From: an uncultured Candidatus Bathyarchaeia archaeon
GTDB lineage: Archaea; Thermoproteota; Bathyarchaeia; 40CM-2-53-6
DNA: 64,000 nt
Direction of reading: 5' to 3'
Assembly (NCBI GenBank): GCA_964598845.1
Contig: CAZRDM010000002.1
Location: forward strand, 35,428-99,427
Part shown: piece by piece, positions 7,317 through 60,229 of the stretch
Layout: each line of letters opens with the position of its first letter
Numbering within the stretch: position 1 is the stretch's first letter
The notes under the pieces: generated by a model
Told to the model about the DNA's origin: nothing
The model's database searches: none
What the model saw: the letters and a program-made list of their open reading frames with translations, nothing else
Translations under genes and position numbers: made by a program

Positions 7317-7421
7317 GTGGGCCCGGAGGGATTCGAACCCTCGACCAGCAGGTTGCTCCGTTGCAACTTATGAGCTTCGACCCATGCTTTCTGTCGCTCT
7401 AGCCTGGCTGAGCTACGGGCC
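7317..7421 (-). tRNA. tRNA gene of about 105 nt, so it very likely contains an intron. The candidate anticodon loop CTCATAA would give CAT/Met, but this is tentative.
   Basis: The minus strand reads GGGCCCG-TA-GCTC-AGCCAGGCTA-GAGC...GAGGG-TTCGAAT-CCCTC-CGGGCCC-A. Acceptor, D-arm and T-arm are canonical, and 47 nt lie between the D-arm and the variable loop where 17 are expected. Confidence 0.75.
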
Positions 7422-7961
7422 CTCTGAGCGGTCAGGAGATTGTACTTGCTTTCGCTCAAAAAGCTTCTCAGGCTGTATGGGAAGCACCAGCGTTCAAGTT
7501 GACTGGGTAGACGTTTGAGTGGCGATTTGCGGTCGACGGCTCCCCGTGCGATGAACAGTTCTGGGAGGATTCCTGCAAAACACGGACCCGATAATCATCG
7601 ACTCTTCCTGCGCCTTTTGACCTGTAACAGAAGGAGTGAGACCTCATGTCGGGTTGTGGATTCGAAGAATTGTATACCAAAATGACCGAAGCATGGAGTA
7701 GGCTTTTCAGGCCTTGGTTGTGGACAATTAAATGGTGGTCGACAACATCGGCGGTGGCGATGGCTGAAACACCGGAACTGCGGGCACGAGAATGCCCCCG
7801 GCAATTACCATCAACAAGTAGATTGCAGTCCTGTTGGCGAACTTCAAATCCATTGTTACCAGCTCTTGATTTTCTTCCCGTCAACTGACACAAGGTATTG
7901 CCTCAGCTGGGGAGCGAGGATCGCTGTAACGGCTAACTTCTGCGGGAGTTGGGGTGCCAAG

Positions 7962-43546: not shown

Positions 43547-44503
43547 CTAAGACCGTGTGCCCTTCAACTGGACCCGACCCGTGTCATACACAGGGGTCAA
43601 ATATCCTAGGTACTTTGGGTTCCTACCGCTCACCAACCTTTCATACTCTCGTTGCAGTTGTAATGTCCTCGGACCAGGTTCACCAGCTCCGACTAGCTTG
43701 CGATCAATACTGAGAATTGGAGTGACCTCCGCGGCGGTGCCGGTTAGGAATGCTTCCTCGCATGTGTAGAGTTCGCTTCTGGCGAGCGTTCGTTCAGTGA
43801 AAGGGATTTCAAGGTCGTTGATTATGCTCATGATAGTTTCGCGTGTGATGCCTCTCAAGATATTCGATGAAATACCCGGCGTCGCTATGCAATCATCCTT
43901 CACTAAGAAGATGTTCTCTCCAGTGCCCTCAGCGACGTTTCCATTGTTGTCGAGGAAGAGGGCCTCATCGAAGCCGGCTTCAGCTGCTTCTGTCCTAGCG
44001 AGGACGGAATTGATGTAGTGACCGCATGCTTTCGCCATAGCCGGGACTGATGGATCACCAAGCCGCCGCCAAGTTGAAACGCATACGTCAAGCCCTTGCT
44101 TGTCTGGGTCGAAGTACTTCTCATAGGGTATGGCGATTATGCTTACGGAGATAGGCGTGGCTCTTGCATCGAGACTTATTCCGCCGACGCCTTTGAAAGC
44201 AATTGGCCTGACATACAAGGAGGAGCGAAAGTTGTTCCTCCTAATCAAATCTAACACGCCTTTGCAGATCTCTCCCTCACAGTAAGGAAGGGCAAAGCCG
44301 TAGATCCTTGCAGAATCGACCATGCGTCGAATGTGATCGTTGAGCCTAAACACGAGAATGTCGTCTTCGGCTTTGTATGCTCTTATCCCCTCGAAGACGC
44401 CAGTACCGTAATGCAGGGCGTGTGTGAAAACGTGCACCGTTGCCTTGTCCCACGGTACTATTTCTCCATTCAACCAGACAAATTCAGCGGGAGCTTGAGA
44501 CAT
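43547..44503 (-). CDS. ilvE: Branched-chain amino acid aminotransferase (ORF extends to 44584; likely start MSQAPAEFVWLNGE)
   Basis: Fold-type IV PLP enzyme motifs (EGIRAY, the catalytic Lys region and GTAAEVTPI). Confidence 0.9.
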   Translation of the reverse strand: MSQAPAEFVWLNGEIVPWDKATVHVFTHALHYGTGVFEGIRAYKAEDDILVFRLNDHIRRMVDSARIYGFALPYCEGEICKGVLDLIRRNNFRSSLYVRPIAFKGVGGISLDARATPISVSIIAIPYEKYFDPDKQGLDVCVSTWRRLGDPSVPAMAKACGHYINSVLARTEAAEAGFDEALFLDNNGNVAEGTGENIFLVKDDCIATPGISSNILRGITRETIMSIINDLEIPFTERTLARSELYTCEEAFLTGTAAEVTPILSIDRKLVGAGEPGPRTLQLQREYERLVSGRNPKYLGYLTPVYDTGRVQLKGTRS

Positions 44504-44812
44504 TCGAATCTTCAACCTCAAGGCGGGATTCGCTCGATCCTTCGATCCTGAGAATCGAGCTATTGAAGGATGATGAGCGGACACAGTCTCTGAACTATGA
44601 GAGCTTGAAACCGAAACGAACCCTCGTTACAGATTCTAAGAATAGACGTTCGCAAATCCGCTCTTTGGATTCGGCGGTTACTATGCGTGTCCGATATAAG
44701 GTTAACCGCCCTGGAGGTTGAATCCGAACACGCAGCCAAGAAATATCAGAAATTGAGTCCACACGACGCAAGTACTTTCTATCTCGTGTACAATGGTTGG
44801 AGTAGATTTGAG

Positions 44813-46225
44813 ATGCCACCTCGGACACTCCTCGAAAAAATCTGGAAGAGTCATATCGTAGATCAGGAACCAGATCGACCCAGTTTGCTCTGGATCGACA
44901 GACATCTTATCCACGAAGTAACCTCACCTCAGGCCTTCGAGAGCCTTCGCATCGCCGGCAGAAAAGTCAGGCGGCCAGACTTAACATTCGCGACCGTAGA
45001 TCATAATGTTCCAACCACCGACCGATCATTTCCAATTCGGGATCCCATTTCCGCCATGCAGGTAGAAGTGCTAGAAAGGAATTGTAGGGAATTCGGGATT
45101 GCGTTCTTTGGTATGAAAAGCCCGCATCAGGGAATAGTCCATGTGATCGGCCCGGAGCTTGGACTCACATTGCCCGGGACCACCTTAGCCTGCGGCGACA
45201 GTCACACATCGACTCATGGAGCCTTCGGTGCCCTCGGTTTGGGAATTGGAACAAGTGAGGTAGAACACGTGCTCGCCACGCAATGTCTCTGGCTGGAAAA
45301 GCCAAGGACATTTGAGATTCGCGTCGATGGGAAGCTCGATCGTGGGGTAACCGCTAAGGACATCATCCTTTACATAATCGGTCGGATTGGCACGGCCGGA
45401 GGCACAGGCTCCGTGATCGAGTACAGAGGTGAGACCATCAAGGAACTGTCGATGGAAGAAAGAATGACGATTTGTAACATGTCCATAGAGGGAGGCGCCC
45501 GCGGTGGACTCATCTCACCGGACGAGACAACGTTTCGTTACCTTCGCGGACGACGGTACGCACCAAAGAACGAAGCCTTCGAGGAGGCCAAGGATCACTG
45601 GCTTCAGCTTCCCACCGACAGAGGAGCTACATTCGACAGGAGCATTGCATTTGATGCATCGCGGATCGCACCGCAGGTTACTTGGGGAACAACCCCTGCC
45701 ATGGTAAGCGATGTCACGGGACAGGTGCCGTACCCTGACCATTTTGATGAGCCGAATATGAGGAAGGCGGTCGTCCGTGCCTTGGAGTATATGGCACTGG
45801 AACCTGGGACACCCATACAGTCAATCAACCTCGACAGGATTTTCATTGGGTCCTGCACAAACTCCCGTCTGGAAGATTTGCTCGTTGCCTCGAAGGTGAT
45901 CAAGGGGAAGAAGCTTGCACCGGGGGTGCGCGCGATGGTTGTTCCAGGTTCCCAGCTTGTAAGGTATCAGGCTGAGAAGCAGGGGTTAGACCGGATTTTC
46001 AAAGAGGCGGGGTTCGAGTGGAGGCAATCAGGGTGTAGCATGTGCTTGGGAATGAATCCTGACGTTCTCGCGCCCGGAGAACGATGCGCCAGCACTTCAA
46101 ACCGCAATTTTGAGGGCAGACAGGGGCCTGGAGGGCGAACACATCTTGTCAGTCCAATCATGGCAGCCGCGGCGGCCATTGCAGGACACTTCGTCGACAT
46201 ACGAGATTGGGACATATCGAGCTGA
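44813..46225 (+). CDS. leuC: 3-isopropylmalate dehydratase large subunit (ORF begins at 44687)
   Basis: Aconitase-family FeS ligand motifs ([22 protein letters not shown] and NRNFEGRQG). Confidence 0.9.
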
Positions 46226-46231
46226 TGAGCA

Positions 46232-46840
46232 TTGGAACGCTTTAGGAACTTTACGGGTATCGTAGCTCCTCTGGACCGAATCAATGTTGACACTGACCAG
46301 ATAATTCCGAAACAGTTTCTCAAGCTTATGCAGAGAACCGGATTCGGCAAGTACTTGTTCTACGAGTGGCGGTTCGAACGGGACGGCAGAGTGAAGGCAG
46401 ATTTTGTTCTGAATAATCCTCGATTTGGAGGAGCAAAGATACTGCTGACCCGCGCCAATTTCGGTTGCGGGAGCTCTCGAGAACACGCAGTTTGGGCTCT
46501 CTCTGAGTACGGTTTCAGAACGTTGATCGCTCCATCGTACGCAGATATCTTCTACAATAATTGCTTCAAGAACGGCATTCTCCCAATCATTCTTGCCCAA
46601 GCCGATGTGGATCACTTATTCAGCGAAGTCTCGAAGCAAGAAGGCTATTCTCTAGAGATAGACCTCCCAGAGCAGACCATTCGAAAGCCAAACGGAGAAA
46701 CCATACACTTCGATATCGACTCATTCAGGAAAAAATCCCTGCTGGAGGGCCTTGATGAGATAGCGTTAACATTGCAGCTTGACGCAAAGATCAGAGATTA
46801 TGAGATGACATTGAGCGGCTTCCAACTAGCGCGAGATTAG
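46232..46840 (+). CDS. leuD: 3-isopropylmalate dehydratase small subunit
   Basis: Aconitase swivel domain with GCGSSREHA. Confidence 0.9.
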
Positions 46841-46875
46841 CCGCTCACAGCACAATGGCTTTTCGATGTCCCGAC

Positions 46876-48555
46876 CTAGTTGCAGATCGCCCCCTCGGCG
46901 GCAGAATGAACGAGTTTTGAATACTTGAATAGCGCGCCTTTCTGGTACTTCAGTTCTGGTTGTTTCCAGTTCTTCATTCTTGATGTAAGCTCTTCATCTG
47001 TGACCTCTACTTTCAGCAGTCGACGTTTCACATCAATGGCAACCTTGTCCTGTTCCTGTAGCACCGCCAGTGGTCCTCCAACCTGTGCTTCAGGGGAAAC
47101 GTGCCCAACCATCAGGCCTCGTGTAGCGCCAGAGAACCTGCCGTCGGTAACCAAGGCGACGTTCTCACCGATGCCTTGGCCTACTATTGCGGCGGTGATG
47201 GCTAGCATTTCTCGCATTCCAGGACCCCCTCTTGGTCCTTCATAACGTATGATGACAACATCGCCACCTTGGATCTCACGTCTCTGAACCGCTGCGAAGG
47301 TCATTTCTTCGGAGTCGAAGACCCTAGCTGGTCCTCGATGTTGAAGTCTGGTCGCGCCAGAGATCTTGATGACGGCTCCTTCCGGAGCAAGGTTCCCTCT
47401 AAGAACCACCAATCCTCCTTGTGGGTGGATCGGGTTAGAGACTTCCCTCACTATGTTCTGCGCGTTGCCCTCAAAGCGAATCTCTTTGATGTTCTGATCA
47501 AGCCTCTTGCCCGTCACCGTCAAAGCTTCTCCGTTTAGCAGTCCTGTGTCAAGCAGCTTTTTCATGATGAGCGGAGCTCCACCAACGAGGTCGAGGTCTC
47601 GCATGACGTATCGGCCTCCCGGTCTCAGGTCCGCGATTACTGGAGTCTTTCGCCCTATTCGTTCGAAATCGTCAAGGGTAAGCTTGATTCCCGCTTCATG
47701 TGCGATCGCTGGCAGATGCAGGAAGGCATTCGTTGACCCGCCGATGGCTTGGACGACTGCTATGGCATTCTCGAAAGCTTCGAATGTTAGGATGTCTCTC
47801 GGTCGAATCCCGTTCTCAAGAAGCCCCATCACAGCTAAACCGCTCATGTACGATGCGCTATATCTACGCTCATCAGTTGCGGGGGGTGAGGCCGATCCCG
47901 GCAGCGATAGGCCTACCGCTTCCATGGCGCAGGCCATAGTATTCGCTGTGAAGAGGCCTCCACAGGCTCCCTCTCCTGGACACGCCGAACATTCGAGTTG
48001 GACAAGTTGCTCCATGGTCATTTTTCCTGCAACGTACGTTCCTACAGCCTCGAATACGTCTTGGATTGTGACGTCGCGTCCCTCGAAGTTTCCTGGCATT
48101 ATGGTGCCTCCGTAAAGAAATACAGATGGAATGTTCAGTCTTGCAGCGGCCATCGCCGAGCCAGGTAGGCTTTTGTCGCAACCCGCGACGGTCACGAGAG
48201 CATCGAATCGCTGAGCGATAGCCATAACCTCAATCGAGTCCGCGATGATTTCGCGGCTTACCAGAGAGGCCTTCATCCCTTCGGTTCCCATGGAGACTCC
48301 GTCGCTCACCGCGATCGTGCCGAACTCGAAAGGCGTTCCTTTCGCGGCCCTAACGCCTTCTTTGACCTTCTTCGTGAGTTTGCTAAGGTGAAAGTTACAA
48401 GGGGTGACCTCATTCCATGTGCTCGCAACGCCAACAAAGGGTTGCGTGAAATCTTGGTCTGTATAGCCGATTGCCCGTAGCATTGCACGATTGGGGGCTC
48501 GCTCAGGGCCTTCCGTTATGTCCTTGCTTCTAAGCCTGAAAAGCTTCGAGGTCAT
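46876..48555 (-). CDS. ilvD: Dihydroxy-acid dehydratase
   Basis: ILVD/EDD motifs CDKSLPG and SGGTS-like, with the cysteine triad for the FeS cluster. 559 aa. Confidence 0.9.
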   Translation of the reverse strand: MTSKLFRLRSKDITEGPERAPNRAMLRAIGYTDQDFTQPFVGVASTWNEVTPCNFHLSKLTKKVKEGVRAAKGTPFEFGTIAVSDGVSMGTEGMKASLVSREIIADSIEVMAIAQRFDALVTVAGCDKSLPGSAMAAARLNIPSVFLYGGTIMPGNFEGRDVTIQDVFEAVGTYVAGKMTMEQLVQLECSACPGEGACGGLFTANTMACAMEAVGLSLPGSASPPATDERRYSASYMSGLAVMGLLENGIRPRDILTFEAFENAIAVVQAIGGSTNAFLHLPAIAHEAGIKLTLDDFERIGRKTPVIADLRPGGRYVMRDLDLVGGAPLIMKKLLDTGLLNGEALTVTGKRLDQNIKEIRFEGNAQNIVREVSNPIHPQGGLVVLRGNLAPEGAVIKISGATRLQHRGPARVFDSEEMTFAAVQRREIQGGDVVIIRYEGPRGGPGMREMLAITAAIVGQGIGENVALVTDGRFSGATRGLMVGHVSPEAQVGGPLAVLQEQDKVAIDVKRRLLKVEVTDEELTSRMKNWKQPELKYQKGALFKYSKLVHSAAEGAICN

Positions 48556-48654
48556 TGAAGTCTTCCTCGGAGGACAACGAAGCGCTCCAATCGTTGCATA
48601 CAGCGCTGGCTTTCAAAGATAACTAGCAAATTGCTCTCGATCAAGCTTAGTCAG

Positions 48655-50175
48655 CTATGGTCTCTTGGAAGCGATTCGTATTCGTCTTCGAAGTAGAATC
48701 TTGTTGATCGCTTCAATCATTGCCTCAACGCTCGCAACCACTACGTCTTCTCTGGCTGCACTTGCTGATACAACAGTTCCGCTCGCGTCTTCAACTTTGA
48801 CCAATGCTTCCGCCAGAGCGTCGGACCCACCGGTGATAGCTTCGAGTCTGTACTCTTTCAACCTGACTTGTACGGATGAGTCGGTAATTTTCTGAACCGC
48901 CCTGATAGCTGCATCCACAGGGCCGACGCCCGTCTCAGCGGATGTGTATTCTTTCCCGTCAAGCTGTAGCCGTACTGAAGCCGTCGGCACTAGTCCTTTC
49001 CCAGTGACAACGGCAAGATCGACCAAGTCTAGGACCCGTTCCTTCTGCGAAGCTTTTCCCAAGACGGCCTCAGTTATCGCGATCAAGTCGGCGTCGGTTA
49101 CTGTCTTGCCCTTGTCTCCGATATCCTTGACCCTTGAAACGATTTCAACGAGTTGATTCTTGTCAGGGAAGTATCCAGCCTCCGCTAGCTGTGCTGCTAT
49201 TCCATGAGCACCTGCATGCTTCCCGGCTTGGAACCAGCGTTTGCGGCCAACGAGCGCAGGGTCGTAGGGCTCATAGGTCAACGGCATCTCCGTAATGCCA
49301 TGCGTGTGAATTCCAGACTCGTGGCCGAATGCGTTGTCGCCGACAACCGCCTTGTTCGGTTGGACACGGGCACCCGTGAGAGCGGCCACAAGTCGCGATG
49401 TCTCGTATAGGAGTTCTGTCTTGATGTTCGTCTTTCGATTGTATAGTCGGTGAAGTGACATCACGAGCTCTTCTAGAGAAGTGTTGCCGGCTCTTTCGCC
49501 GAGGCCATTCACAGTCACGTGTGCTTGGCATGCGCCGGACTCGATCGCCGCCAGGCTATTTGCGACAGCAAGGCCGAAGTCATTGTGACAGTGGATACTG
49601 ACCGGCCTCTTAACGGCCGAGACTACCTCTCTTGTGATTGCTGCGATATTCTTCGGAAACGAAATTCCTACCGTGTCTGGGATATTGACGCGATCGGCGC
49701 CTGCGCTTTTGGCAGTCTCGTAGGCCTCTCTGAGAAAACTCTTCTCAGTTCGGGTAGCATCTTCAGCAGAGAACTCAACCTTCACGCCATGCGATTTTGC
49801 ATAGGAGACTGAATCCGTTATTCGTTCGAGGACCTGCTGACGGCTCAGTTTCAGTTTGTGTTCAAGGTGTATGTCCGAGGTCGCGATGAAGACGTGCACA
49901 CAGTTCACATTTGAGCTTATGGCGGCATCAATGTCGATCTTATTCGCCCGAGCTAAGCCTACGACTTCGCATGATAGGCCTGCCTTTGCCACAGCTGAAA
50001 CGGCTTCCTGTTCTCCGTTTGAGGCTATCGGGAAACCTGCTTCTATCGCGTCAACGCCTAGCTTGTCAAGTTGTTGTGCGATTCGAACCTTCTCCTCCGG
50101 AGTCAGAGAGACCCCGGGAGTTTGTTCTCCGTCTCTTAACGTGGTGTCAAAGATCCGAACGGTCATTTCGTCCAT
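48655..50175 (-). CDS. leuA: 2-isopropylmalate synthase (with C-terminal regulatory domain)
   Basis: DTTLRDGEQ and HCHNDFGLAVANSLAA (the HxH metal site). 506 aa. Confidence 0.9.
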   Translation of the reverse strand: MDEMTVRIFDTTLRDGEQTPGVSLTPEEKVRIAQQLDKLGVDAIEAGFPIASNGEQEAVSAVAKAGLSCEVVGLARANKIDIDAAISSNVNCVHVFIATSDIHLEHKLKLSRQQVLERITDSVSYAKSHGVKVEFSAEDATRTEKSFLREAYETAKSAGADRVNIPDTVGISFPKNIAAITREVVSAVKRPVSIHCHNDFGLAVANSLAAIESGACQAHVTVNGLGERAGNTSLEELVMSLHRLYNRKTNIKTELLYETSRLVAALTGARVQPNKAVVGDNAFGHESGIHTHGITEMPLTYEPYDPALVGRKRWFQAGKHAGAHGIAAQLAEAGYFPDKNQLVEIVSRVKDIGDKGKTVTDADLIAITEAVLGKASQKERVLDLVDLAVVTGKGLVPTASVRLQLDGKEYTSAETGVGPVDAAIRAVQKITDSSVQVRLKEYRLEAITGGSDALAEALVKVEDASGTVVSASAAREDVVVASVEAMIEAINKILLRRRIRIASKRP

Positions 50176-50181
50176 TGACGA

Positions 50182-51234
50182 TCACTTTGCCGAAATTCGG
50201 CTTGAGATTGCCTCCCCCATCTCCGAAGTGCTTAGTCTACCTCCAAGATCAGGAGTCACCTCTCCGGCCGCTAAGCAGGCTTCCACTGCGATGCGGATTG
50301 CATGGGAGGCCTTCGCTCCGTTCTGATCGTGTTTCTTTGCACTCAGCCAATCAAGCATCATTGCCGCTGAGAGGATCAGGGATGTGGGATTTGCGATGCC
50401 CTTACCCGCGATATCCGGTGCGCACCCGTGTACAGGTTCAAAGATGGCATAACTTTCGCCGATGTTCGCTGAAGGTGCAAGTCCCAGCCCCCCAACAACT
50501 TGCGCCGCCTCATCCGAAAGAATGTCGCCGAACATATTGGTGGTTACAATAACATCGAATTCCTCAGGATTTCGAATTAGATTCATTGCAGCAGCATCGA
50601 CAAGCATGTCTGAGAGGTGGATGTCGCTGTACGATGCGGCGACCTCTTTGCAGACTGACAGGAAGAGTCCATCTGTTTTCTTCATTACGTTTGCTTTGTG
50701 TATTGCAGTTACTCGCATCCTTCGTTGACGGGCCAGCTCGAAAGCGTACTTTGCAATCCGATAGGAGGCTCTTCTGGTGATCACGCGTGTTGCAGTAGCC
50801 CTTTGGTCGTCGCCCTCTTCTAGGCCCGAATACAGATCTTCAGAGTTCTCCCTGACGATCACAAGGTCTATTTGCGAACTGATACTGGGAACATTTGGAA
50901 GCGATTTCGCAGGGCGAACATTAGCGTACAGGTCCAGTTCTTGCCTCAGACGGACAATGACATCGTAGGCTGATTCTCCAACGGGGCCTTTCAGGCAACA
51001 ATCGCTTTTGCGGATTGTTCGCAGGCTATCCTCAGGTAATGCTTCGCCGCGACTTTTCAACGCCCGGTCCCCCGCTTCGACCGGAATCAAATCCAACGAT
51101 ACGGCAAAGGCACTGCCAACCCGGTTCAGAACGTCTCTTGTTGCTGCTGCCTGCTCAGGGCCGATTCCATCGCCTTCGACAAGTGCAATAGAATAGGTCG
51201 TAGATGGTCCTCCTACTTCTGAAGGCCGGACCAT
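50182..51234 (-). CDS. leuB: 3-isopropylmalate dehydrogenase (ORF extends to 51333; the likely start MVRPS... would overlap the ilvC 3' end by about 22 nt)
   Basis: [23 protein letters not shown] and [12 protein letters not shown] are diagnostic. Confidence 0.85.
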
Positions 51235-52202
51235 CTCCTGATTTCCGCGCCGACTTTTTCTATGGAATGTTGCTCGAGTTTTCCCATCATCTGCTTGAGT
51301 TGCTCGGAAGCCTTCGCGGGCTCTCTGGTCCAAGACTTCGCGAACTTTCCGGATTGGATGTTTCTCAAAACTCTCCTCATGTTCTGGCGGACTTTCCGAT
51401 CGACCACTTTTGGTCCCACAGTCAGACCGCCGAACTTCGCGGTGTCTGAAACTCGACGTAACATCCCCACGAATCCATATTGGTAGACTAGGTCCATTAT
51501 GAGCTTCATCTCGTTGCAGGTTTCGTAGTATGCGAGTTCAGGGGAATATCCGGCATCTACCAGCGTCTCGTATCCTTCAAGAATGAGACACATCAAACCG
51601 CCCACAAGGACTGCTTGCTCCCCGAACAGGTCGGATTCAGTCTCGTCTTTGAATGTGGTTTCAATGACACCCGCTCGAGAGCAACCGATTCCCTTGCAGA
51701 GCGCCAAGACGAGTTCACGCGCTTGTCCTGAGGCGTTTTCATGGACAGCGAACAAGGCTGGGACGCCGAAGCCATTGATGTAGAGTTCGCGCAGTCGCTG
51801 CCCTGGGCTCTTAGGCGCCACCATGATTACATCTACGTTCTTGGGAGGAACAATATCTCGGAAGTGTATGTTGTATCCATGAGAGAAACTCAATGCTTTA
51901 CCCGTTTCGAGATGCGGCTCGATATCCGACTTGTAGACAGAGGGTTGCTGCGGATCCGGAATTAACAGCAAGATCGTGTCTGCTTGGGCAGCTGCGTCGG
52001 CGATCGCGAGGGGTTGAAAGCCATCACTCATTGCTAGCTGCCAAGAATTGCCTTCTCGACGGAGCCCCACAAGGATTTCGGCGCCAGAGTCTCGCAGGTT
52101 CAGGGCTTGGGCTCGGCCTTGACTTCCGTAACCGATAACGGCGACCTTGGCTTGACGAATCGGGGCCTCATCAATATCATTATCGTAGTATACCTTCACC
52201 AT
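51213..52202 (-). CDS. ilvC: Ketol-acid reductoisomerase
   Basis: The Rossmann motif [21 protein letters not shown] and the metal-binding domain. 329 aa. Confidence 0.9.
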
Positions 52203-52717
52203 TTCGCGGCACTCTCCGATGGGACGATTTCGCGAGATAGAGCTACGGCGCCTGTCCTCGCCACCTCCTTGAGTCCAAAGTTTCCAGCAAGTTTGATGAA
52301 AGCGTTGATCTTGTCCGGATCGCCGGAGACCTCGACCGTTAAGGTATCTGGAGATACGTCCACGATATTGCCACGAAACGTCTCAATGTAGTTCATTATC
52401 TCGGGTCTCATTGCGGGAAACCCTGGTGAGAACTTGATGAGGGCCAGTTCACGTATGGTTGCACTCCTTTCTTCTAGTGGCGAGACACTTCGGACATCGA
52501 TCAGTCTATCGATGTTCTTCAACACCTGATCGAATCGATTGTAGTCTGAGAACATTGTGAATGTCATTCTTGCGCAGCCCGGAGTTTCAGCTGGGCCGAC
52601 TGCAATGCTCTCAATGTTGAAGGATTTCCTACGAATGAGGTTGGTGATCCGAAATAACACTCCCGGTTTGTGTTCGACCAGTGCGGATATGATGCGAAGT
52701 TGCGTATCCTGACTCAT
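52196..52717 (-). CDS. ilvH: Acetolactate synthase small (regulatory) subunit
   Basis: ACT domain ([28 protein letters not shown]). Confidence 0.85.
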
Positions 52718-54447
52718 CCGACAATCATCTCCCTAATTCCAGCGCCCGGCGGGAGCATTGGAAGGACGTTTTCTTCGGGTGATATTGGAACGTCGATTAC
52801 TGTTGTGACTGGGGAACGTATTGCCCTGTTGACGGCGGCCTCCAGCTCCGGAATGGTGTCGACGCGAACGCCTTCAGCCCCATAGGCCTGGGCCAGTTTC
52901 ACGAAATCGGGTGATCGACCCAGCTGGACACCTGAATATCGTCGATTGTAGAAAAATCGCTGCCATTGCGCGACCATCCCCAGCATACTGTTGTTTAATA
53001 TGATCACGGTGACGGGAATCTGTTCCTCGACGCTGGTGGCGAGGGAGTTTTCCGTCATTCGGAAGCTTCCGTCGCCAGCTATGTCAATAACTGGAACCTC
53101 CGGTCGTGCGACTTTGGCGCCGAGCGCTGCTGGGAATCCGAAACCCATCGTTCCCAAACCTCCTGAACTAAAGAATGTTCCTGGTTCGATCACTTGGAAG
53201 TGCTGCTCGCACCACATCTGATGTTGACCCACCTCCGTGGTTACTATCGCCTTGGACGGTATGAATCGCCGAATCATCTTGACTGTCTCCGCTCCACTCA
53301 GGCGCGAGCCATTGCCGTCAAATTCGGTGCCTGCCATTACCATCACTTCTTGGACACGTTTGACCCATGCCTCGCGGTGTTGCCCCATCAACTCGACTTG
53401 GACTTCACCTATCAGCGCCTGCAATGCCTTCTTGGCGTCGGCTACCAGTGAAACTACTGGGGCTTTGTAGTTCTTGCCGATCTCTGCTCTGTCCGCATCG
53501 ATGTGAATGACCTTTGTATTTGGAGCGAACTTCTCCATTTTGCCGGTGGTTCTGTCGGAAAATCTCGAACCTATGGCGAAGAGCACATCGCATTCTGGAA
53601 TTATCTTGTTTGTTCGCTCGGAGCCGTGCATTCCCATGCAGCCAAGAGCCAGTGGATGGTTCTCCGGGAATGCTCCCTTACCCATGAAAGAGGTTGCGAC
53701 CGGTGCGACTATGAGTTCGGCCAGCGCTTGGAGCTCATGATATGCGTTCGCGATCTTCACACCCCCGCCAGCAAGTATGATCGGACGCTGCGCGCCAAGC
53801 ATTGTACGAGCAATAGTCTTGATTATTGTCGGATCAGGATCAGGTAACGGCTGATAGTTCGGGAAATCAATATGGTCTGGGAATTCGACGTCGTCCTCGC
53901 CTTGCTGAACGTCTTTGGGAATATCTACTAAGACTGGCTGCGGACGTCGAGCCACCGCTAGGTAGAAAGCTGCCTTGATCGCGTAGGGTATTTCTCGCAC
54001 GCGCAGTGGTTGAAAGGTATACTTTGTTACCGAGGTCGCCATTCCAATCACATCTGTCTCTTGAAATGCGTCTGACCCGATTACGAAGGATGGAACTTGT
54101 CCCGTTATCGCGACGACTGGCGACGAATCCATGTATGCGGTTGCTAGGCCGGTCATCAGATTCGTCGCTCCAGGGCCCGAAGTTGCGATACATACTCCGG
54201 CTTTCCCAGAGACGCGCGCAAAGCCATCAGCCATGTGGGCTGCCGACTGTTCGTGCCGCACTAAGATGTGTCGTATCCCTCTGTAATCTGGCGGGGTGTA
54301 TCCTAGGTTTTGGTAGTCGTAGAGGACGTCGTAGATAGGAATGTTGGCTCCACCTGGAAGCCCAAAGACAACTTCTACTCCTTCTCTTTGCAGGGTTTCA
54401 ATGAGAGCCTGCGCGCCAGACATCTTGCCCAATGTTTGGATTTTCAC
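52714..54447 (-). CDS. ilvB: Acetolactate synthase large (catalytic) subunit
   Basis: TPP-binding GDGSF and FAD-binding motifs. 577 aa. Confidence 0.9.
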   Translation of the reverse strand: MKIQTLGKMSGAQALIETLQREGVEVVFGLPGGANIPIYDVLYDYQNLGYTPPDYRGIRHILVRHEQSAAHMADGFARVSGKAGVCIATSGPGATNLMTGLATAYMDSSPVVAITGQVPSFVIGSDAFQETDVIGMATSVTKYTFQPLRVREIPYAIKAAFYLAVARRPQPVLVDIPKDVQQGEDDVEFPDHIDFPNYQPLPDPDPTIIKTIARTMLGAQRPIILAGGGVKIANAYHELQALAELIVAPVATSFMGKGAFPENHPLALGCMGMHGSERTNKIIPECDVLFAIGSRFSDRTTGKMEKFAPNTKVIHIDADRAEIGKNYKAPVVSLVADAKKALQALIGEVQVELMGQHREAWVKRVQEVMVMAGTEFDGNGSRLSGAETVKMIRRFIPSKAIVTTEVGQHQMWCEQHFQVIEPGTFFSSGGLGTMGFGFPAALGAKVARPEVPVIDIAGDGSFRMTENSLATSVEEQIPVTVIILNNSMLGMVAQWQRFFYNRRYSGVQLGRSPDFVKLAQAYGAEGVRVDTIPELEAAVNRAIRSPVTTVIDVPISPEENVLPMLPPGAGIREMIVG

Positions 54448-54864: not shown

Positions 54865-55281
54865 ATGCGCATCCGCCGTTTTCAACTTCAGGATTATGAC
54901 AGAGTATTGACGCTCTGGAAAGACGCTGGTTTGCTCCTGCGCCCGGGAGACGAGCTCGAGGGCCTCAAACTGAAACTGCAACGGGACCCTGACCTGTTCC
55001 TGATCGCTGAGGATGAAGGTGAGATAGTGGGGGTTGTACTCGGTGCATGGGATGGAAGACGCGGCTGGATCAACCATCTCGCTGTAAGGCCGAACCACCA
55101 GCGGAAAGGTGTTGGCAGCTCGCTTCTCCGAGAGTTAGAGGCACGTTTAGCAGAGAAAGGGGCCCCCAAGATCAACGCACAAGTTTACCAGTGGAACACG
55201 AAGTCGATTGAATTTTTCAAAGCAAACGGGTATGAGGTCCATTCTGACCTCGTAATGGTGGGAAAATATCTCAAGAGATAG
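54865..55281 (+). CDS. GNAT-family N-acetyltransferase (ORF begins at 54676; likely start MRIRRF)
   Basis: Acetyl-CoA-binding motif QRKGVGSSLL (Q/RxxGxG/A). Confidence 0.7.
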   Translation: MRIRRFQLQDYDRVLTLWKDAGLLLRPGDELEGLKLKLQRDPDLFLIAEDEGEIVGVVLGAWDGRRGWINHLAVRPNHQRKGVGSSLLRELEARLAEKGAPKINAQVYQWNTKSIEFFKANGYEVHSDLVMVGKYLKR

Positions 55282-55356: not shown

Positions 55357-56517
55357 TTGTCCCTTCCAAGTCTCCCGAAGTTCGCGGAGGAACTGAGGAA
55401 CAAGCCCATAGATTCATTCATCTCAAGACTGCTGGAGATGCCGCCTGAGAGCAATGTATCGAAGATCATAGGTATGCTTAAGGAAGGTGGGGCATACGAA
55501 GCTTTCTTGCCAGAGGGCTCCCGTTGCGGGATTATCTCTGCCAGAGACGTTTTGAAGACCGCTAACGTTGAAGCTACGAAGCCGTCGGCCCTGATGTCCT
55601 ATGCCCCGGTACTTTCCAGAGAAGCATCGGTCGGCTTGGCTGCGAGACTGATGGCCGATTACAGAATACGAGCCGTTCCTGTAACCGACGGACGCAGGAT
55701 CGTGGGTCAAATAAACTCTGTGAGCCTACTCCAAGAGCTAAGAGGAAAGATCGATCGCGACCTGAGGATATCGTCAATCACTACAAAGAACCCGATCACG
55801 GTCGAAGCAGGGGCTTCGGTTGCGAAGGCCAAGGACATCATGGCAAGAAAAAGAATCGATCACCTGCCGGTTATGAGCAATGGGCATGTAACTGGCATCA
55901 TAACTTCCATCGATATTGTTTCTCGAATCCCTCCACAGGAACGTGTAGGTAGCAGGTCTATGAAACCTGAGATACGACGAAGTTTCGACTTTGCTGTCCG
56001 TGATGCCATGGACCCGACACCCCTGACCTGCGCACCGGAAATAGAGGCAAAACAGGCGTTGGATAAGATGCTAGACGGGGGAAAGACCTACATTCTCGTC
56101 ACGCAATGGGACGAGCTTCAAGGGATAGCGACCTACAGAGATTTTATGACGCTACTCGCGGAACCAGAGCCTGAACCTGAAGTCCCAATGTTCATGGTTG
56201 GGCTTCCTGAAGACCCATTCGAGGCCGAAGCCACGAAAACGAAATTCAAGCGAACGATTAATCAACTACACCGAAGCTTTCCCGACATCCTCGAAGCAAG
56301 GTCGGTGGTTAAGGCCAAGTTCAGTAGACCCGGCAAAGAGCGAGGTCGATATGAGGTGACGGTGCACATCAGAACCTCCAAGGACACGTACACGTACTCT
56401 GAAGGCGGCTGGGAGCTGCCAGCTATATACGACGCGATTACGGACAGACTAAAACGACTACTTACACAGAAACAAAAGCGAAGAAAACGTGAGAGGGAAC
56501 GGACCGAATATATCTGA
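55357..56517 (+). CDS. CBS-domain (4x) protein with a C-terminal HPF/RaiA-like (ribosome hibernation factor-like) domain and a basic tail
   Basis: The CBS pairs are IISARDV/IRAVPVTD and MARKRIDHLPVMSN.../ILVTQWDELQGIATYRDF. The C-terminal ~90 aa (FKRTINQLHRSFPDILEARSVVKAKFSR...RYEVTVHIRTSKDTYTYSEGGWELPAIYDAITDRLKRLLTQKQKRRKRE) align position by position with E. coli HPF/YfiA (VVLKVEK...[40 protein letters not shown]). Confidence 0.6.
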   Translation: MSLPSLPKFAEELRNKPIDSFISRLLEMPPESNVSKIIGMLKEGGAYEAFLPEGSRCGIISARDVLKTANVEATKPSALMSYAPVLSREASVGLAARLMADYRIRAVPVTDGRRIVGQINSVSLLQELRGKIDRDLRISSITTKNPITVEAGASVAKAKDIMARKRIDHLPVMSNGHVTGIITSIDIVSRIPPQERVGSRSMKPEIRRSFDFAVRDAMDPTPLTCAPEIEAKQALDKMLDGGKTYILVTQWDELQGIATYRDFMTLLAEPEPEPEVPMFMVGLPEDPFEAEATKTKFKRTINQLHRSFPDILEARSVVKAKFSRPGKERGRYEVTVHIRTSKDTYTYSEGGWELPAIYDAITDRLKRLLTQKQKRRKRERERTEYI

Positions 56518-56550: not shown

Positions 56551-58575
56551 TTGCTCTTACCCGCGAGGATGAGACGAGTCGAAATAATTGTACCGCAAAG
56601 GAACTTTGAAGATGCCATGCTCTATCTTCGCGAGCAGAATGCAATCGAGCTACTCGACGTAAAGGAGATGATCAAAGGATACGGAGGAGGAGTCAGGCCC
56701 GCCCCTGTTTCAGAGAGGCTTTATCGACTAACGACTCTCGAATCGAAAATTAGTTCGTTAGTCAGCACACTCACACTGGATTCGTTGCCTCCGACGCCTG
56801 TCCCCGTGGAGCTGCGCATCTCGGACGAGAAGACAGTTGAGGTCGAGAAAAAGGCCGCAGAGATCGAGCAGCAAGTCACCTCAACTACCAACGAGGCTCA
56901 AGCTCTGGAATCCCTCATCACATACGCCGAGCAACAGTTGAAGCTTAGCATTGAAGACATCGCAAAGATTGAGAATGTGAGCTCGCCTGAAGGCAGGCAC
57001 AGGCTAGAGGAGATAGTTGCCAGCATCTTTCAAACGCTCAAGCCATCCGAAATAGAAGTGGCAGGACCTCTCGGTGACCTAATACAAGCAAAGGCTCTAG
57101 AAGACGCTGTAGTCAAGGACATTACAGACAACGTCGCAAGGATTATGCGTGGAAAACGAGACGAAGGAGCAGTCGCAGACGCCATCACTCAGACTTTGGG
57201 TTTGAAGCTAAAAGCAGCTCTCAGAAGCAAACGCCTAGCATATGAAGCAACAAGTAGGATTGAAGAAGCGAAGAAACGTCTGAGTCAACTCCGTGAGAAA
57301 CTCGCCGAAATAAGCCGTGTCGAGGGGGAGTACCTGCTTGTTCAGCGCGAGGTCATTGCAGCTGAACGGGCCTTCGAACAGGCGAAGGGGTTCTGCGGGA
57401 AGACCGAATCCACGTACATGATCGAAGGATGGATGCCCTCCTCGAAGGTCAGCCGTATCCGATCTGAGCTCAAGGAAATATGTGCAGACGAAGTCATTAT
57501 GAAGGATTGGTCGAGTACACATGCACCAACAAGCCTGCAGAATCCGAAGCTTCCAACTCTCTCGATATTCGAGAAACTCACCGTGGGCTTCGGGATTCCG
57601 AAGAGTGATGAGGTTGATCCGACGGTTCTTTGGCTCGTGACTTACCCGATTTTCTTCGGTTTCATGTTTGGAGACGTAGGGAACGGCCTTGTCGTAATGC
57701 TGATCTCCAGCTTAATTTACCTCTACAAGAAACGCGGGCTAGTGATCCAAGACACCGCCTTCGGCGGATTGGGCGGAGTTTTCAACATGGTCGTTCAAGG
57801 TTCGCCCCTGCTTATACTCAGCGGAGGATCAGCATTCATCGTTGGTTTTCTCTACGGGACTGTTTTTGGGAATCCAGAATGGTTCGAGCTGATAACCGGC
57901 CTACATGGACCTTTATGGTTTGAACCCTTTGAGAATATTCGACTTATGCTCAGACTATCCATAACTATCGGAGTCATCCACATACTGTCCGGACTTCTCC
58001 TGAACGTATTCAACCAAGTCTACGCCAAGGAATACCGCGAATTGATCTCAGGCCCTGTTGTCTGGATCTGGTTCTACGGAGCATTCGGCATAACGCTCCT
58101 ACAGTATGGACTCAGATTTCCCAACTACCTCTTCGACCCACGAAGTGCAACCGACATCTTTCTACGCATGGGCGTTCCGCTGATAGCGATGATGGCCTTG
58201 AAGCTCTGGGCGGAAGGCGGAATGGGGTTAATGCACGCTTTTGAATCCATGTTAGCGTCGCTCTCCCACACGATATCCTACGTTCGAATACTTGCGATGA
58301 AGTTGATCGACGATGTATTCCTTCGCCTATTTTTGGGAGTCTTGGCATTCTTCACCGCCTGGGGTAACCTAATGGGAAGCGCGATTGGTTGGGTTCTGTT
58401 CGCGGCACTGACCACTATCCTCATACTGATACTGGAAACCGCCTTCGTCTTCATGCAATCGCTTCGACTTCACTGGGTGGAGTGGTTCCTCAAATTCTAC
58501 ACCGGAAGCGGAACAGCCTTCAAACCGTATGGAATCGAGAGAACCTACACGAAAGTACAGACTGGCCTGATGTGA
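56551..58575 (+). CDS. atpI: A-type (V-type) ATP synthase subunit I
   Basis: 674 aa with an N-terminal cytoplasmic coiled-coil domain and a C-terminal membrane domain of about 8 TM helices containing the conserved Arg region (RLHWVEWF). Confidence 0.85.
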   Translation: MLLPARMRRVEIIVPQRNFEDAMLYLREQNAIELLDVKEMIKGYGGGVRPAPVSERLYRLTTLESKISSLVSTLTLDSLPPTPVPVELRISDEKTVEVEKKAAEIEQQVTSTTNEAQALESLITYAEQQLKLSIEDIAKIENVSSPEGRHRLEEIVASIFQTLKPSEIEVAGPLGDLIQAKALEDAVVKDITDNVARIMRGKRDEGAVADAITQTLGLKLKAALRSKRLAYEATSRIEEAKKRLSQLREKLAEISRVEGEYLLVQREVIAAERAFEQAKGFCGKTESTYMIEGWMPSSKVSRIRSELKEICADEVIMKDWSSTHAPTSLQNPKLPTLSIFEKLTVGFGIPKSDEVDPTVLWLVTYPIFFGFMFGDVGNGLVVMLISSLIYLYKKRGLVIQDTAFGGLGGVFNMVVQGSPLLILSGGSAFIVGFLYGTVFGNPEWFELITGLHGPLWFEPFENIRLMLRLSITIGVIHILSGLLLNVFNQVYAKEYRELISGPVVWIWFYGAFGITLLQYGLRFPNYLFDPRSATDIFLRMGVPLIAMMALKLWAEGGMGLMHAFESMLASLSHTISYVRILAMKLIDDVFLRLFLGVLAFFTAWGNLMGSAIGWVLFAALTTILILILETAFVFMQSLRLHWVEWFLKFYTGSGTAFKPYGIERTYTKVQTGLM

Positions 58576-58909: not shown

Positions 58910-60229
58910 GTGAGTCGTTCCAGTTCAGTTCAGGTACAGGCGGCAAGTGACGTTGTCGCGGAGTTGCAGGAATATGGGATCACAAGAAACGAGGCCCGGG
59001 TCCTCGTATTCTTGGCGAAGACAGGCCCCTCGAAAGCAAGCGAGGTGGCCCGGGCAGTTCAGATTAACCGGACCGAAACATACAGGACCATAAGGAACCT
59101 GCAGCGTCGAGGTCTTGTAGAAGCCACGTTAGAGAGACCGGTTCGATTTCAGTCCGTCCCCTTTGACAAGTGCTTACAGGTCCTTATCGACGAGAGAAAG
59201 GCCAAGCTAAGACTTCTTGAACAGCGGGGCGAAACCCTCCGTCGCCAGTTTGAGGAGATACGTGTCGAGCCCTTTGCACGAGAGCTTGAGCGATTTCAGG
59301 TTGTTGAAGGGCGACTCCGAATAGAGCAAAGGCTCCAGAGCATGTATGCGAAGGCGGAGAAATCGGTGATGGGTGTCCTTTCGTCCTCCGAACTTCTGCG
59401 TGCAGATACTTCCGGACTTTTCGATTTGTTGGCACATGGCGCGAGTTTGGGTTTGAGAGTCAGAGTAATCACAGCGATAACAAGATCCAATTTGGATGTT
59501 GTGGAGAAACTTCAAGAGACCTTTGAGGTCAGACACCTCGACCTGAAGGCTAAGCCAATTCCGAGGGTCTCGATCATTGATGACAATGAGGCTCTGTTCG
59601 AAATAACGACGGCTGATGAGACTCCACGTACAGGCGAGGAAGTCGCGCTTTGGATTAACAGTCGGGCCTTCATAAGGAACCTTCAAGCTTACTTTGAGGA
59701 GATGTGGAACTCAGCCACGCCAGCTGAAAGCCGCATCGAAGCTCTGCGCAAGGGAATACCTCCCGATGAGCTTAGAATCTTCAAGGGCAGAGTGGAGGTA
59801 ACTGAGAAACTCAACGAGATGATCTCATCTTCCGATCGGAGTGTGGAGATTTGGACGACCGAACGTGGAATCCAAGCGTTAGCGGATTTTCACTTGGAAC
59901 AACTTAGACAAGCCAAAGCTCGTGGCAGTAAGATCCGAATCATTGCTCCCATCACTAGTGAAAATACAGAGGGTGCCAGAAAACTAGTTCCCGTTTCGGA
60001 ACTTCGCTACTCTGAAGCCCTAGGCCCAGCAGGAATCATGATCCTTGACCAAAGGGAGTTGATGCTATACGAACGACTTCCAGACGACAACAGTAAAGAT
60101 GTCGGAGCCGACGTAGGATTTTGGACTAACAGCACACGTTTCATCGAAACGATGAGTAGACTTTACGATTCGATGTGGAAAGGCGTGTTTGCGATATATG
60201 CTCCCAGACGCAGAGGTCTCCATCGATAG
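58910..60229 (+). CDS. TrmB-like transcriptional regulator (N-terminal wHTH, extended C-terminal domain)
   Basis: The N-terminus GITRNEARVLVFLAKTGPSKASEVARAVQINRTETYRTIRNLQRRGLVE is TrmB-type HTH. 439 aa. Confidence 0.55.
   Translation: MSRSSSVQVQAASDVVAELQEYGITRNEARVLVFLAKTGPSKASEVARAVQINRTETYRTIRNLQRRGLVEATLERPVRFQSVPFDKCLQVLIDERKAKLRLLEQRGETLRRQFEEIRVEPFARELERFQVVEGRLRIEQRLQSMYAKAEKSVMGVLSSSELLRADTSGLFDLLAHGASLGLRVRVITAITRSNLDVVEKLQETFEVRHLDLKAKPIPRVSIIDDNEALFEITTADETPRTGEEVALWINSRAFIRNLQAYFEEMWNSATPAESRIEALRKGIPPDELRIFKGRVEVTEKLNEMISSSDRSVEIWTTERGIQALADFHLEQLRQAKARGSKIRIIAPITSENTEGARKLVPVSELRYSEALGPAGIMILDQRELMLYERLPDDNSKDVGADVGFWTNSTRFIETMSRLYDSMWKGVFAIYAPRRRGLHR

Follow-up and report, generated by a model that had tools for sequence, protein, structure and literature searches.

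Locus and domain architecture

The 64,000-nucleotide stretch of DNA analysed here (the window; GenBank assembly GCA_964598845.1, contig CAZRDM010000002.1, positions 35,428 to 99,427, forward strand) comes from an uncultured Candidatus Bathyarchaeia archaeon and carries a gene for a protein of 386 residues in which four CBS domains are followed by a proline/glutamate linker, a C-terminal domain with the predicted fold of the ribosome hibernation factors HPF and RaiA, and a basic tail (Table 1). Very probably the gene is an orthologue, in Bathyarchaeia, of HibA, an archaeal ribosome hibernation factor that has also been named AHA. The fusion is taken to be the published HibA/AHA because the protein matches HibA of Pyrococcus abyssi collinearly over its full length. 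The original prediction, made from the letters of the window without database searches, had described the same open reading frame (ORF), its length, the EPEPEPE stretch, the C-terminal domain and the K/R/E-rich tail, all of which were confirmed by the ORF list and the translation.

More than 120 full-length orthologues (61–99% identity) were obtained from metagenomes and metagenome-assembled genomes (MAGs). Their common N-terminus reads MS(V/L)xSLPKY..., and the TTG start at 55357 is supported because the orthologues begin with this matching N-terminus. Orthologues that carry organism names are labelled Bathyarchaeia, and the orthologues and syntenic loci together belong to Bathyarchaeia and related Thermoproteota MAGs; the host of the protein is archaeal, as had been proposed. 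The linker has the form AExEPEPEV within the clade, the EPEPEPE stretch being clade-specific (ortholog alignment). An AlphaFold2 model of the complete protein, built on a 45-sequence alignment, has a predicted local distance difference test score (pLDDT) of 83. A second CBS protein was sought within the window and none was found.

Table 1 Features of the hibA locus; nucleotide positions are those of the window, residue numbers those of the 386-residue protein, AF2 is AlphaFold2.
Feature	Position	Strand	Residues	Details and basis
hibA/AHA-family gene	55357..56517	+	386 aa	TTG start, TGA stop; ORF list, orthologues, collinear P. abyssi HibA match
CBS1	55423..55581	+	about 23-75	G58-I-I-S-A-R-D64; AF2 secondary structure, Foldseek, motif conservation
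CBS2	55582..55755	+	about 76-133	G117-Q-I-N-S-V-S123, without ribose-binding Asp; Pfam stretch, AF2, column counts
CBS3	55756..55923	+	about 134-189	T183-S184 conserved; best Pfam CBS stretch (138-191), column counts
Extended loop after CBS3	55924..55986	+	190-210	Ungapped against 9sr9_H, pLDDT, conservation
CBS4	55987..56160	+	about 211-268	G256-I-A-T259-Y-R261-D262; AF2, conservation
Acidic Pro/Glu linker	56161..56184	+	269-276	A-EPEPEPE; translation
HPF/RaiA-like domain (predicted)	56185..56472	+	277-372 (~96 aa)	AF2 models, Foldseek, profile A5, hhalign
Basic K/R/E-rich C-terminal tail	56473..56514	+	373-386	QKQKRRKRERERTEYI at 371-386; prolongs helix alpha2, low pLDDT at end
GNAT acetyltransferase (upstream context gene)	54865..55281 (ORF from 54676)	+		PF00583 E=9e-20, NF002959 E=4e-36
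A/V-type ATPase subunit I (atpI)	56551..58575	+		33 nt after hibA stop; PF01496 E=2e-39
TrmB-family regulator (third gene of block)	58910..60229	+		PF01978, PF11495; 77-82% identity in related loci

CBS module

The Pfam CBS profile PF00571, a search that the original prediction had suggested, matched at E=1.2e-28, only three stretches being significant individually. Four CBS units are present in the AlphaFold2 model (about residues 1–269), and since the model aligns over some 280 columns with CBS tetrads, the earlier reading of four CBS motifs is right. The tetrads found by Foldseek are those of Sulfolobus solfataricus 3ddj (solved with AMP), MJ1225, Methanosarcina acetivorans SriA/B/D on ribosomes, AMPK gamma and Pyrobaculum calidifontis Dri, with template modelling (TM) scores of 0.67–0.81, normalised by target length, and E values of 1e-17 to 1e-13.

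The ribose-binding motif G-h-h-T/S-x-x-D occurs in CBS1, CBS3 and CBS4 and is missing from CBS2. T183-S184 and T259/R261/D262 are kept across the relatives; T259 is invariant, and position 186 varies (D, Q or H). Together, CBS3 and CBS4 correspond to the region in which the HibA/AHA papers place the AMP/ATP site, and are a putative nucleotide site. The loop that follows CBS3 aligns without gaps with residues 190–207 of P. abyssi HibA, the loop that enters the peptidyl-transferase centre (PTC) and is termed the PTC loop; close orthologues all have E195, R196 and G198, and the low pLDDT of 56–59 is expected of a flexible loop.

C-terminal domain

The predicted elements, assigned by DSSP in two AlphaFold2 models, the second being of the C-terminal domain alone (pLDDT 78), are beta1 (278–281), alpha1 (287–307), beta2 (311–321), beta3 (331–340), beta4 (344–351) and alpha2 (from 354). 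When the domain model was compared with the PDB by Foldseek, ranks 1–33 were all bacterial or plastid HPF/RaiA/pY (query-normalised TM-scores 0.60–0.73, probability 1.00), among them Vibrio cholerae HPF (4hei_A; E=8.8e-6, query-normalised TM-score 0.69), Psychrobacter urativorans RaiA (8rd8_D), Escherichia coli HPF (2rql), the N-terminal domain of Staphylococcus aureus HPF and chloroplast pY. The fold of the C-terminal domain, as modelled, is that of HPF/RaiA, which is what the original prediction had expected of a structure prediction.

This domain is also the most conserved part of the protein, with 80% identity among close orthologues against 56–66% for the four CBS domains, and judged by that conservation it appears to be under purifying selection. 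Its clade signature is VGLPEDPFEAEA(T/A)K.KF ... RRYEV ... GW(E/D)LP.(I/V)YD (alignments A1 and A3).

At the level of single sequences the relationship is faint. No alignment at E<=100 was obtained when the C-terminal 125 residues were run against E. coli HPF in BLASTP, and a phmmer search of PDB sequences with the C-terminal domain likewise had no matches. Profiles A2 and A3, built narrowly from the C-terminal region of close Bathyarchaeia orthologues and compared with the PDB and, by hhalign, with E. coli HPF, reached HPF only at non-significant E values of 0.015–0.25. The best PDB match of these two profiles, the Q-beta A1 capsid, was judged spurious. Searching 1.84 billion representative proteins with a C-terminal-domain profile gave 153 relatives at E<=1e-3, a mixture of proteins of about 365–410 residues, in which the domain is C-terminal, and proteins of about 100–140 residues, some of them stand-alone (e.g. 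P0137). P0246 (1524 residues) and P0260 (493 residues) were rejected as relatives; both are repeat-rich, and many short repeated stretches score in them. Of 59 relatives gathered with the C-terminal domain as sole query, 13 matched PF02482, the HPF/RaiA profile of Pfam (best E=2.1e-7).

The HPF matches grew stronger as the profile was broadened, and bacterial HPFs reached the top of the PDB list only with A5, a C-terminal-only profile built from a diverse set of archaeal relatives (S. aureus 6qbz_A, E=4.1e-6; Thermus thermophilus 4v8h_AX, E=2e-4; E. coli 2rql_A, E=8.9e-4). Alignment of A5 with E. coli HPF by hhalign (E=7.8e-6, probability 84%, 21% identity) reproduced the register of the original prediction, which had claimed a position-by-position correspondence to HPF. 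That claim holds at the level of profile and fold; the pairwise alignment offered for it is non-significant and, because searches with the single protein were weak or null, is by itself no better than chance.

Those weak or null pairwise and narrow-profile results, together with the low identity and a domain rich in R, K and E, are what would be said for a resemblance that arose by chance or from compositional bias, a K/R/E-rich amphipathic helix passing for HPF. We regard this as extremely improbable. Since the matches lie in the folded core, outside the basic K/R tail, low-complexity bias, a pitfall that had been foreseen, does not account for them; the wider profile strengthened the HPF matches; and archaeal relatives pass PF02482 in their own right. 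By these matches, the Foldseek result, the A5 profile and hhalign a chance origin is effectively refuted, and the HPF homology of the C-terminal domain is supported along three independent lines, namely predicted structure, transitive homology and a diversified profile.

Relationship to HibA/AHA and other CBS proteins

HibA came to light in cryo-electron microscopy of P. abyssi ribosomes in hibernation (Madru et al., bioRxiv October 2025; Nat Commun April 2026, PMC13324472). In that work four CBS domains (residues 1–269) precede an HPF/RaiA-like C-terminal domain (residues 270–392), which lodges in the mRNA/tRNA channel of the 30S; on the 50S, three positions were seen for the CBS module, and in one of them the loop 190–207 encircles the conserved PTC adenine. 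HibA binds AMP with a dissociation constant of 12 uM by isothermal titration calorimetry, its deletion in Thermococcus barophilus results in smaller 70S pools and later recovery, and it was found in 47% of archaeal genomes, Bathyarchaeia genomes being listed in the genome table of the paper (PMC13324472). The Haloferax volcanii orthologue HVO_2384 was independently named AHA by Souza et al. (bioRxiv 2026, PMC12934967), who described two AMP between CBS3 and CBS4 and 3,160 homologues across 17 phyla. In vitro translation inhibition and knockout phenotypes have been published for the family (PMC13324472, PMC12934967).

Against PDB sequences, the single Bathyarchaeia protein matched P. abyssi HibA (9sr9_H, deposited as 'Dehydrogenase') with E=1.1e-15, and the alignment is a single collinear run (query 78–376, target 71–375). 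With the whole-family profile A4 the same chain was the top match (E=2.7e-49; query 62–367, target 63–376), and a haloarchaeal ribosome-bound chain, 9l96_a, aligned with A4 across both modules; its numbering is incompatible with residues K311 and K313 of HVO_2384, which are taken up below, and a literature search for a paper on PDB entry 9L96 found none. A CBS tetrad, a predicted HPF fold at the C-terminus, collinear homology to structurally characterised members, an extended CBS3 loop and an archaeal host, all traits of HibA/AHA, are thus found together in the Bathyarchaeia protein.

Several observations weigh against the assignment. PF02482, the second profile proposed originally, has no match to the 386-residue protein at E<=10, and TIGR00741 (yfiA), although covering profile positions 14–99 of 102, stays at E=0.004 and 17.7 bits, below its cut-off of 40.9. 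The C-terminal domain of P. abyssi HibA was not retrieved from the PDB at E<=1 by C-terminal-only profiles, and its hhalign comparison with the family profile reached only E=0.0026; since the C-terminal domains are so divergent, the homology to Thermococcales HibA rests mostly on the CBS module, collinearity and fold. The CBS3 loop differs in sequence from the P. abyssi PTC loop. In the published data AMP/ATP had no clear effect on ribosome binding (PMC13324472), and experimental work on the family is confined to members from outside the Bathyarchaeia, those of P. abyssi, T. barophilus and H. volcanii.

The missing PF02482 match and the subthreshold TIGR00741 score would also suit a metabolic or transcriptional regulator with a CBS tetrad (HhpR/CM-3 or AMPK-gamma-like) whose C-terminal domain is an HPF look-alike that does not bind ribosomes; CBS tetrads are known in non-ribosomal contexts too, and the CBS part has weak NCBIfam matches to regulators (e.g. 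HhpR, E=9e-5). Such a regulator is nevertheless quite improbable here: the fold search returned HPF/RaiA almost exclusively, bacterial HPFs are matched significantly at profile level, the protein that aligns collinearly over the full length is ribosome-bound HibA, the HPF-like domain is the part conserved best, and a DNA-binding domain is absent. Eukaryotic AMPK gamma itself has the CBS-tetrad fold in common with the protein (Foldseek E about 1e-13 to 1e-14, target-normalised TM-score about 0.7), and its nucleotide sites 3 and 4 are equivalent to those of AHA (PMC12934967), but it is a subunit of a kinase heterotrimer, with neither an HPF domain nor ribosome binding.

Chains of SriA/B/D and Dri were matched by the CBS module in both sequence and fold, which raises the possibility of another CBS-based archaeal hibernation system (Dri, SriA–D/ARC-P or ARC-A) in place of HibA. 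Ribosomes and adenine nucleotides are bound by the homologous CBS tetrads of those systems, whose members carry, in place of an HPF-fold domain, either another CBS tetrad or a short occlusion element. The protein studied here has the HPF-fold domain, only its CBS part matches their chains, and with the family profile HibA is the best match over the full length. In published phylogenies the Dri/Sri/ARC lineages are separate and largely mutually exclusive with HibA/AHA (PMC13324472, PMC12934967). Membership of the protein in one of them is very hard to credit.

As a HibA orthologue, the protein agrees with the Thermococcales proteins (PAB0961 of P. abyssi, TK1186 of Thermococcus; PDB 9SR9-9SRF, 9T7H) in collinearity, in the position of the post-CBS3 loop and in the T-x-x-D of CBS4. 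It differs from them in that clear sequence similarity is confined to the CBS module, the C-terminal domains being very divergent; in its EPEPEPE linker and more basic tail; and in a PTC loop that is unrelated in sequence to that of P. abyssi, yet kept within Bathyarchaeia (E195-R196-x-G198). AHA is of the same family, with a CBS tetrad, the AMP pair at CBS3/CBS4, an HPF domain on the 30S and loop 3 of CBS3 in the PTC; haloarchaeal AHA proteins are acidic, unlike the Bathyarchaeia protein. Bacterial and plastid HPF/RaiA (YfiA, pY; PF02482, TIGR00741) have the fold predicted here, with profile homology over nearly the whole domain, and by homology their site in the decoding channel of the 30S is predicted for this protein as well; here, however, the curated cut-offs are not reached and an N-terminal CBS tetrad replaces the bacterial layouts, which are stand-alone or, in long HPF, extended by a C-terminal dimerisation domain that is lacking in this protein. 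The last helix is longer than in bacterial HPF and there are archaeal-specific insertions, as reported for HibA/AHA.

Proposed mode of action

Ribosome binding, translation inhibition and AMP binding would extend to the Bathyarchaeia protein from the work on P. abyssi, T. barophilus and H. volcanii. By homology, the HPF/RaiA-fold domain and the basic tail would occupy the 30S mRNA/tRNA channel and overlap the A- and P-site positions, while the CBS tetrad would dock on the 50S at tRNA positions, from where the extended CBS3 loop may be able to enter the PTC. A single polypeptide could in this manner clamp the empty 70S ribosome in starvation or stress, with translation blocked and rRNA shielded from degradation; because both subunits would be held by one polypeptide, the vacant 70S would stay assembled and silent. 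The CBS3/CBS4 region may bind adenine nucleotides, AMP being preferred, and so would tie the factor to the energy status of the cell.

The original idea of a CBS nucleotide sensor joined to an HPF domain as an energy-linked hibernation factor is supported by predicted fold, profile homology and full-length homology to HibA. Its two claims of rarity did not survive. HPF domains had been called essentially bacterial and plastid, which the occurrence of HibA/AHA among archaea contradicts; the device had been called undescribed, a claim that is unsupported because the protein is an orthologue of a family published as HibA/AHA in 2025–2026, and the Joint Genome Institute annotates several orthologues as 'CBS domain-containing protein/ribosome-associated translation inhibitor RaiA'. 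Raw sequence, read without aids, was enough to recover a real and biologically important fusion of energy sensor and hibernation domain, one that experiments established only in 2025–2026; as a discovery it adds little to a family published with structures, biochemistry, genetics and phylogeny. What it does contribute is minor: a well-conserved subfamily in Bathyarchaeia, marked by strong conservation of the HPF-like domain and by a CBS3 loop of its own, and a conserved synteny of acyl-CoA-synthetase-like gene, hibA, atpI and TrmB that is undiscussed in the papers searched.

Genomic neighbourhood

Downstream of hibA the order is conserved. The triplet hibA, atpI, TrmB recurs in the related clade of Bathyarchaeia from soil and peat, and adjacency of hibA and atpI was seen in L001–L006, L008–L015, L018, L039, L050 and L051 of the loci compared. 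In most of these relatives the block is longer and reads hypB, hypA, a PhoU-like gene, a gene like ADP-forming acyl-CoA synthetase, hibA, atpI, TrmB (L001–L006, L009–L012, L014, L050, L051), with 15 nt between the synthetase-like gene and hibA in L001, L050 and L051. In the window, a minus-strand ilv/leu cluster and the GNAT gene lie upstream of hibA instead; the upstream block of the relatives is replaced, which places a rearrangement breakpoint directly ahead of hibA. In more divergent Bathyarchaeia hibA has other neighbours. The main text of the HibA and AHA papers makes no mention of synteny, gene neighbours or operons.

The upstream GNAT gene of the original prediction is real, and because its matches span ORF residues 64–201 translation probably starts at M64 (nt 54865). 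As a conserved partner of hibA it was rejected: a homologue is present in only 1 of 46 genome loci (L013, about 3 kb from hibA), and the closest relatives have the acyl-CoA-synthetase-like gene upstream. HVO_2384 of H. volcanii carries acetyl groups on K311 and K313 in vivo, and a catalytically dead variant of the GNAT Pat2 was found to co-purify with it (PMC12607858). A scheme in which acetyl-CoA status and acetylation by the neighbouring GNAT regulate the engagement of HibA with the ribosome, and in which hibA and atpI (a stator subunit) are co-expressed as an energy-status operon, is conceivable but unlikely.

The atpI gene is solitary: other ATP-synthase subunit genes are not adjacent, and its neighbours are TrmB, a KaiC-like ATPase, an MFS transporter and Top6A. 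The branched-chain cluster at 43547–54447 comprises genes for a class IV aminotransferase and leuC/leuD-like aconitase subunits, together with ilvD, leuA-like and leuB-like genes, ilvC, ilvN and ilvB. Two loci with the order hibA, atpI, TrmB lie in MAGs labelled as bacteria, L011 (DATIYC010000034.1) and L012 (DATKOK010000102.1), with identities of 52–59% for hibA (to the 386-residue protein), 72–73% for atpI and 77–78% for TrmB; these MAGs ('Acidiferrales bacterium' and 'Methylomirabilota bacterium') probably contain mis-binned archaeal contigs. The only Rfam match in the window is a tRNA at 7318–7422 on the minus strand, whose 105 nt against a model of 71 positions suggest an intron-containing archaeal tRNA.

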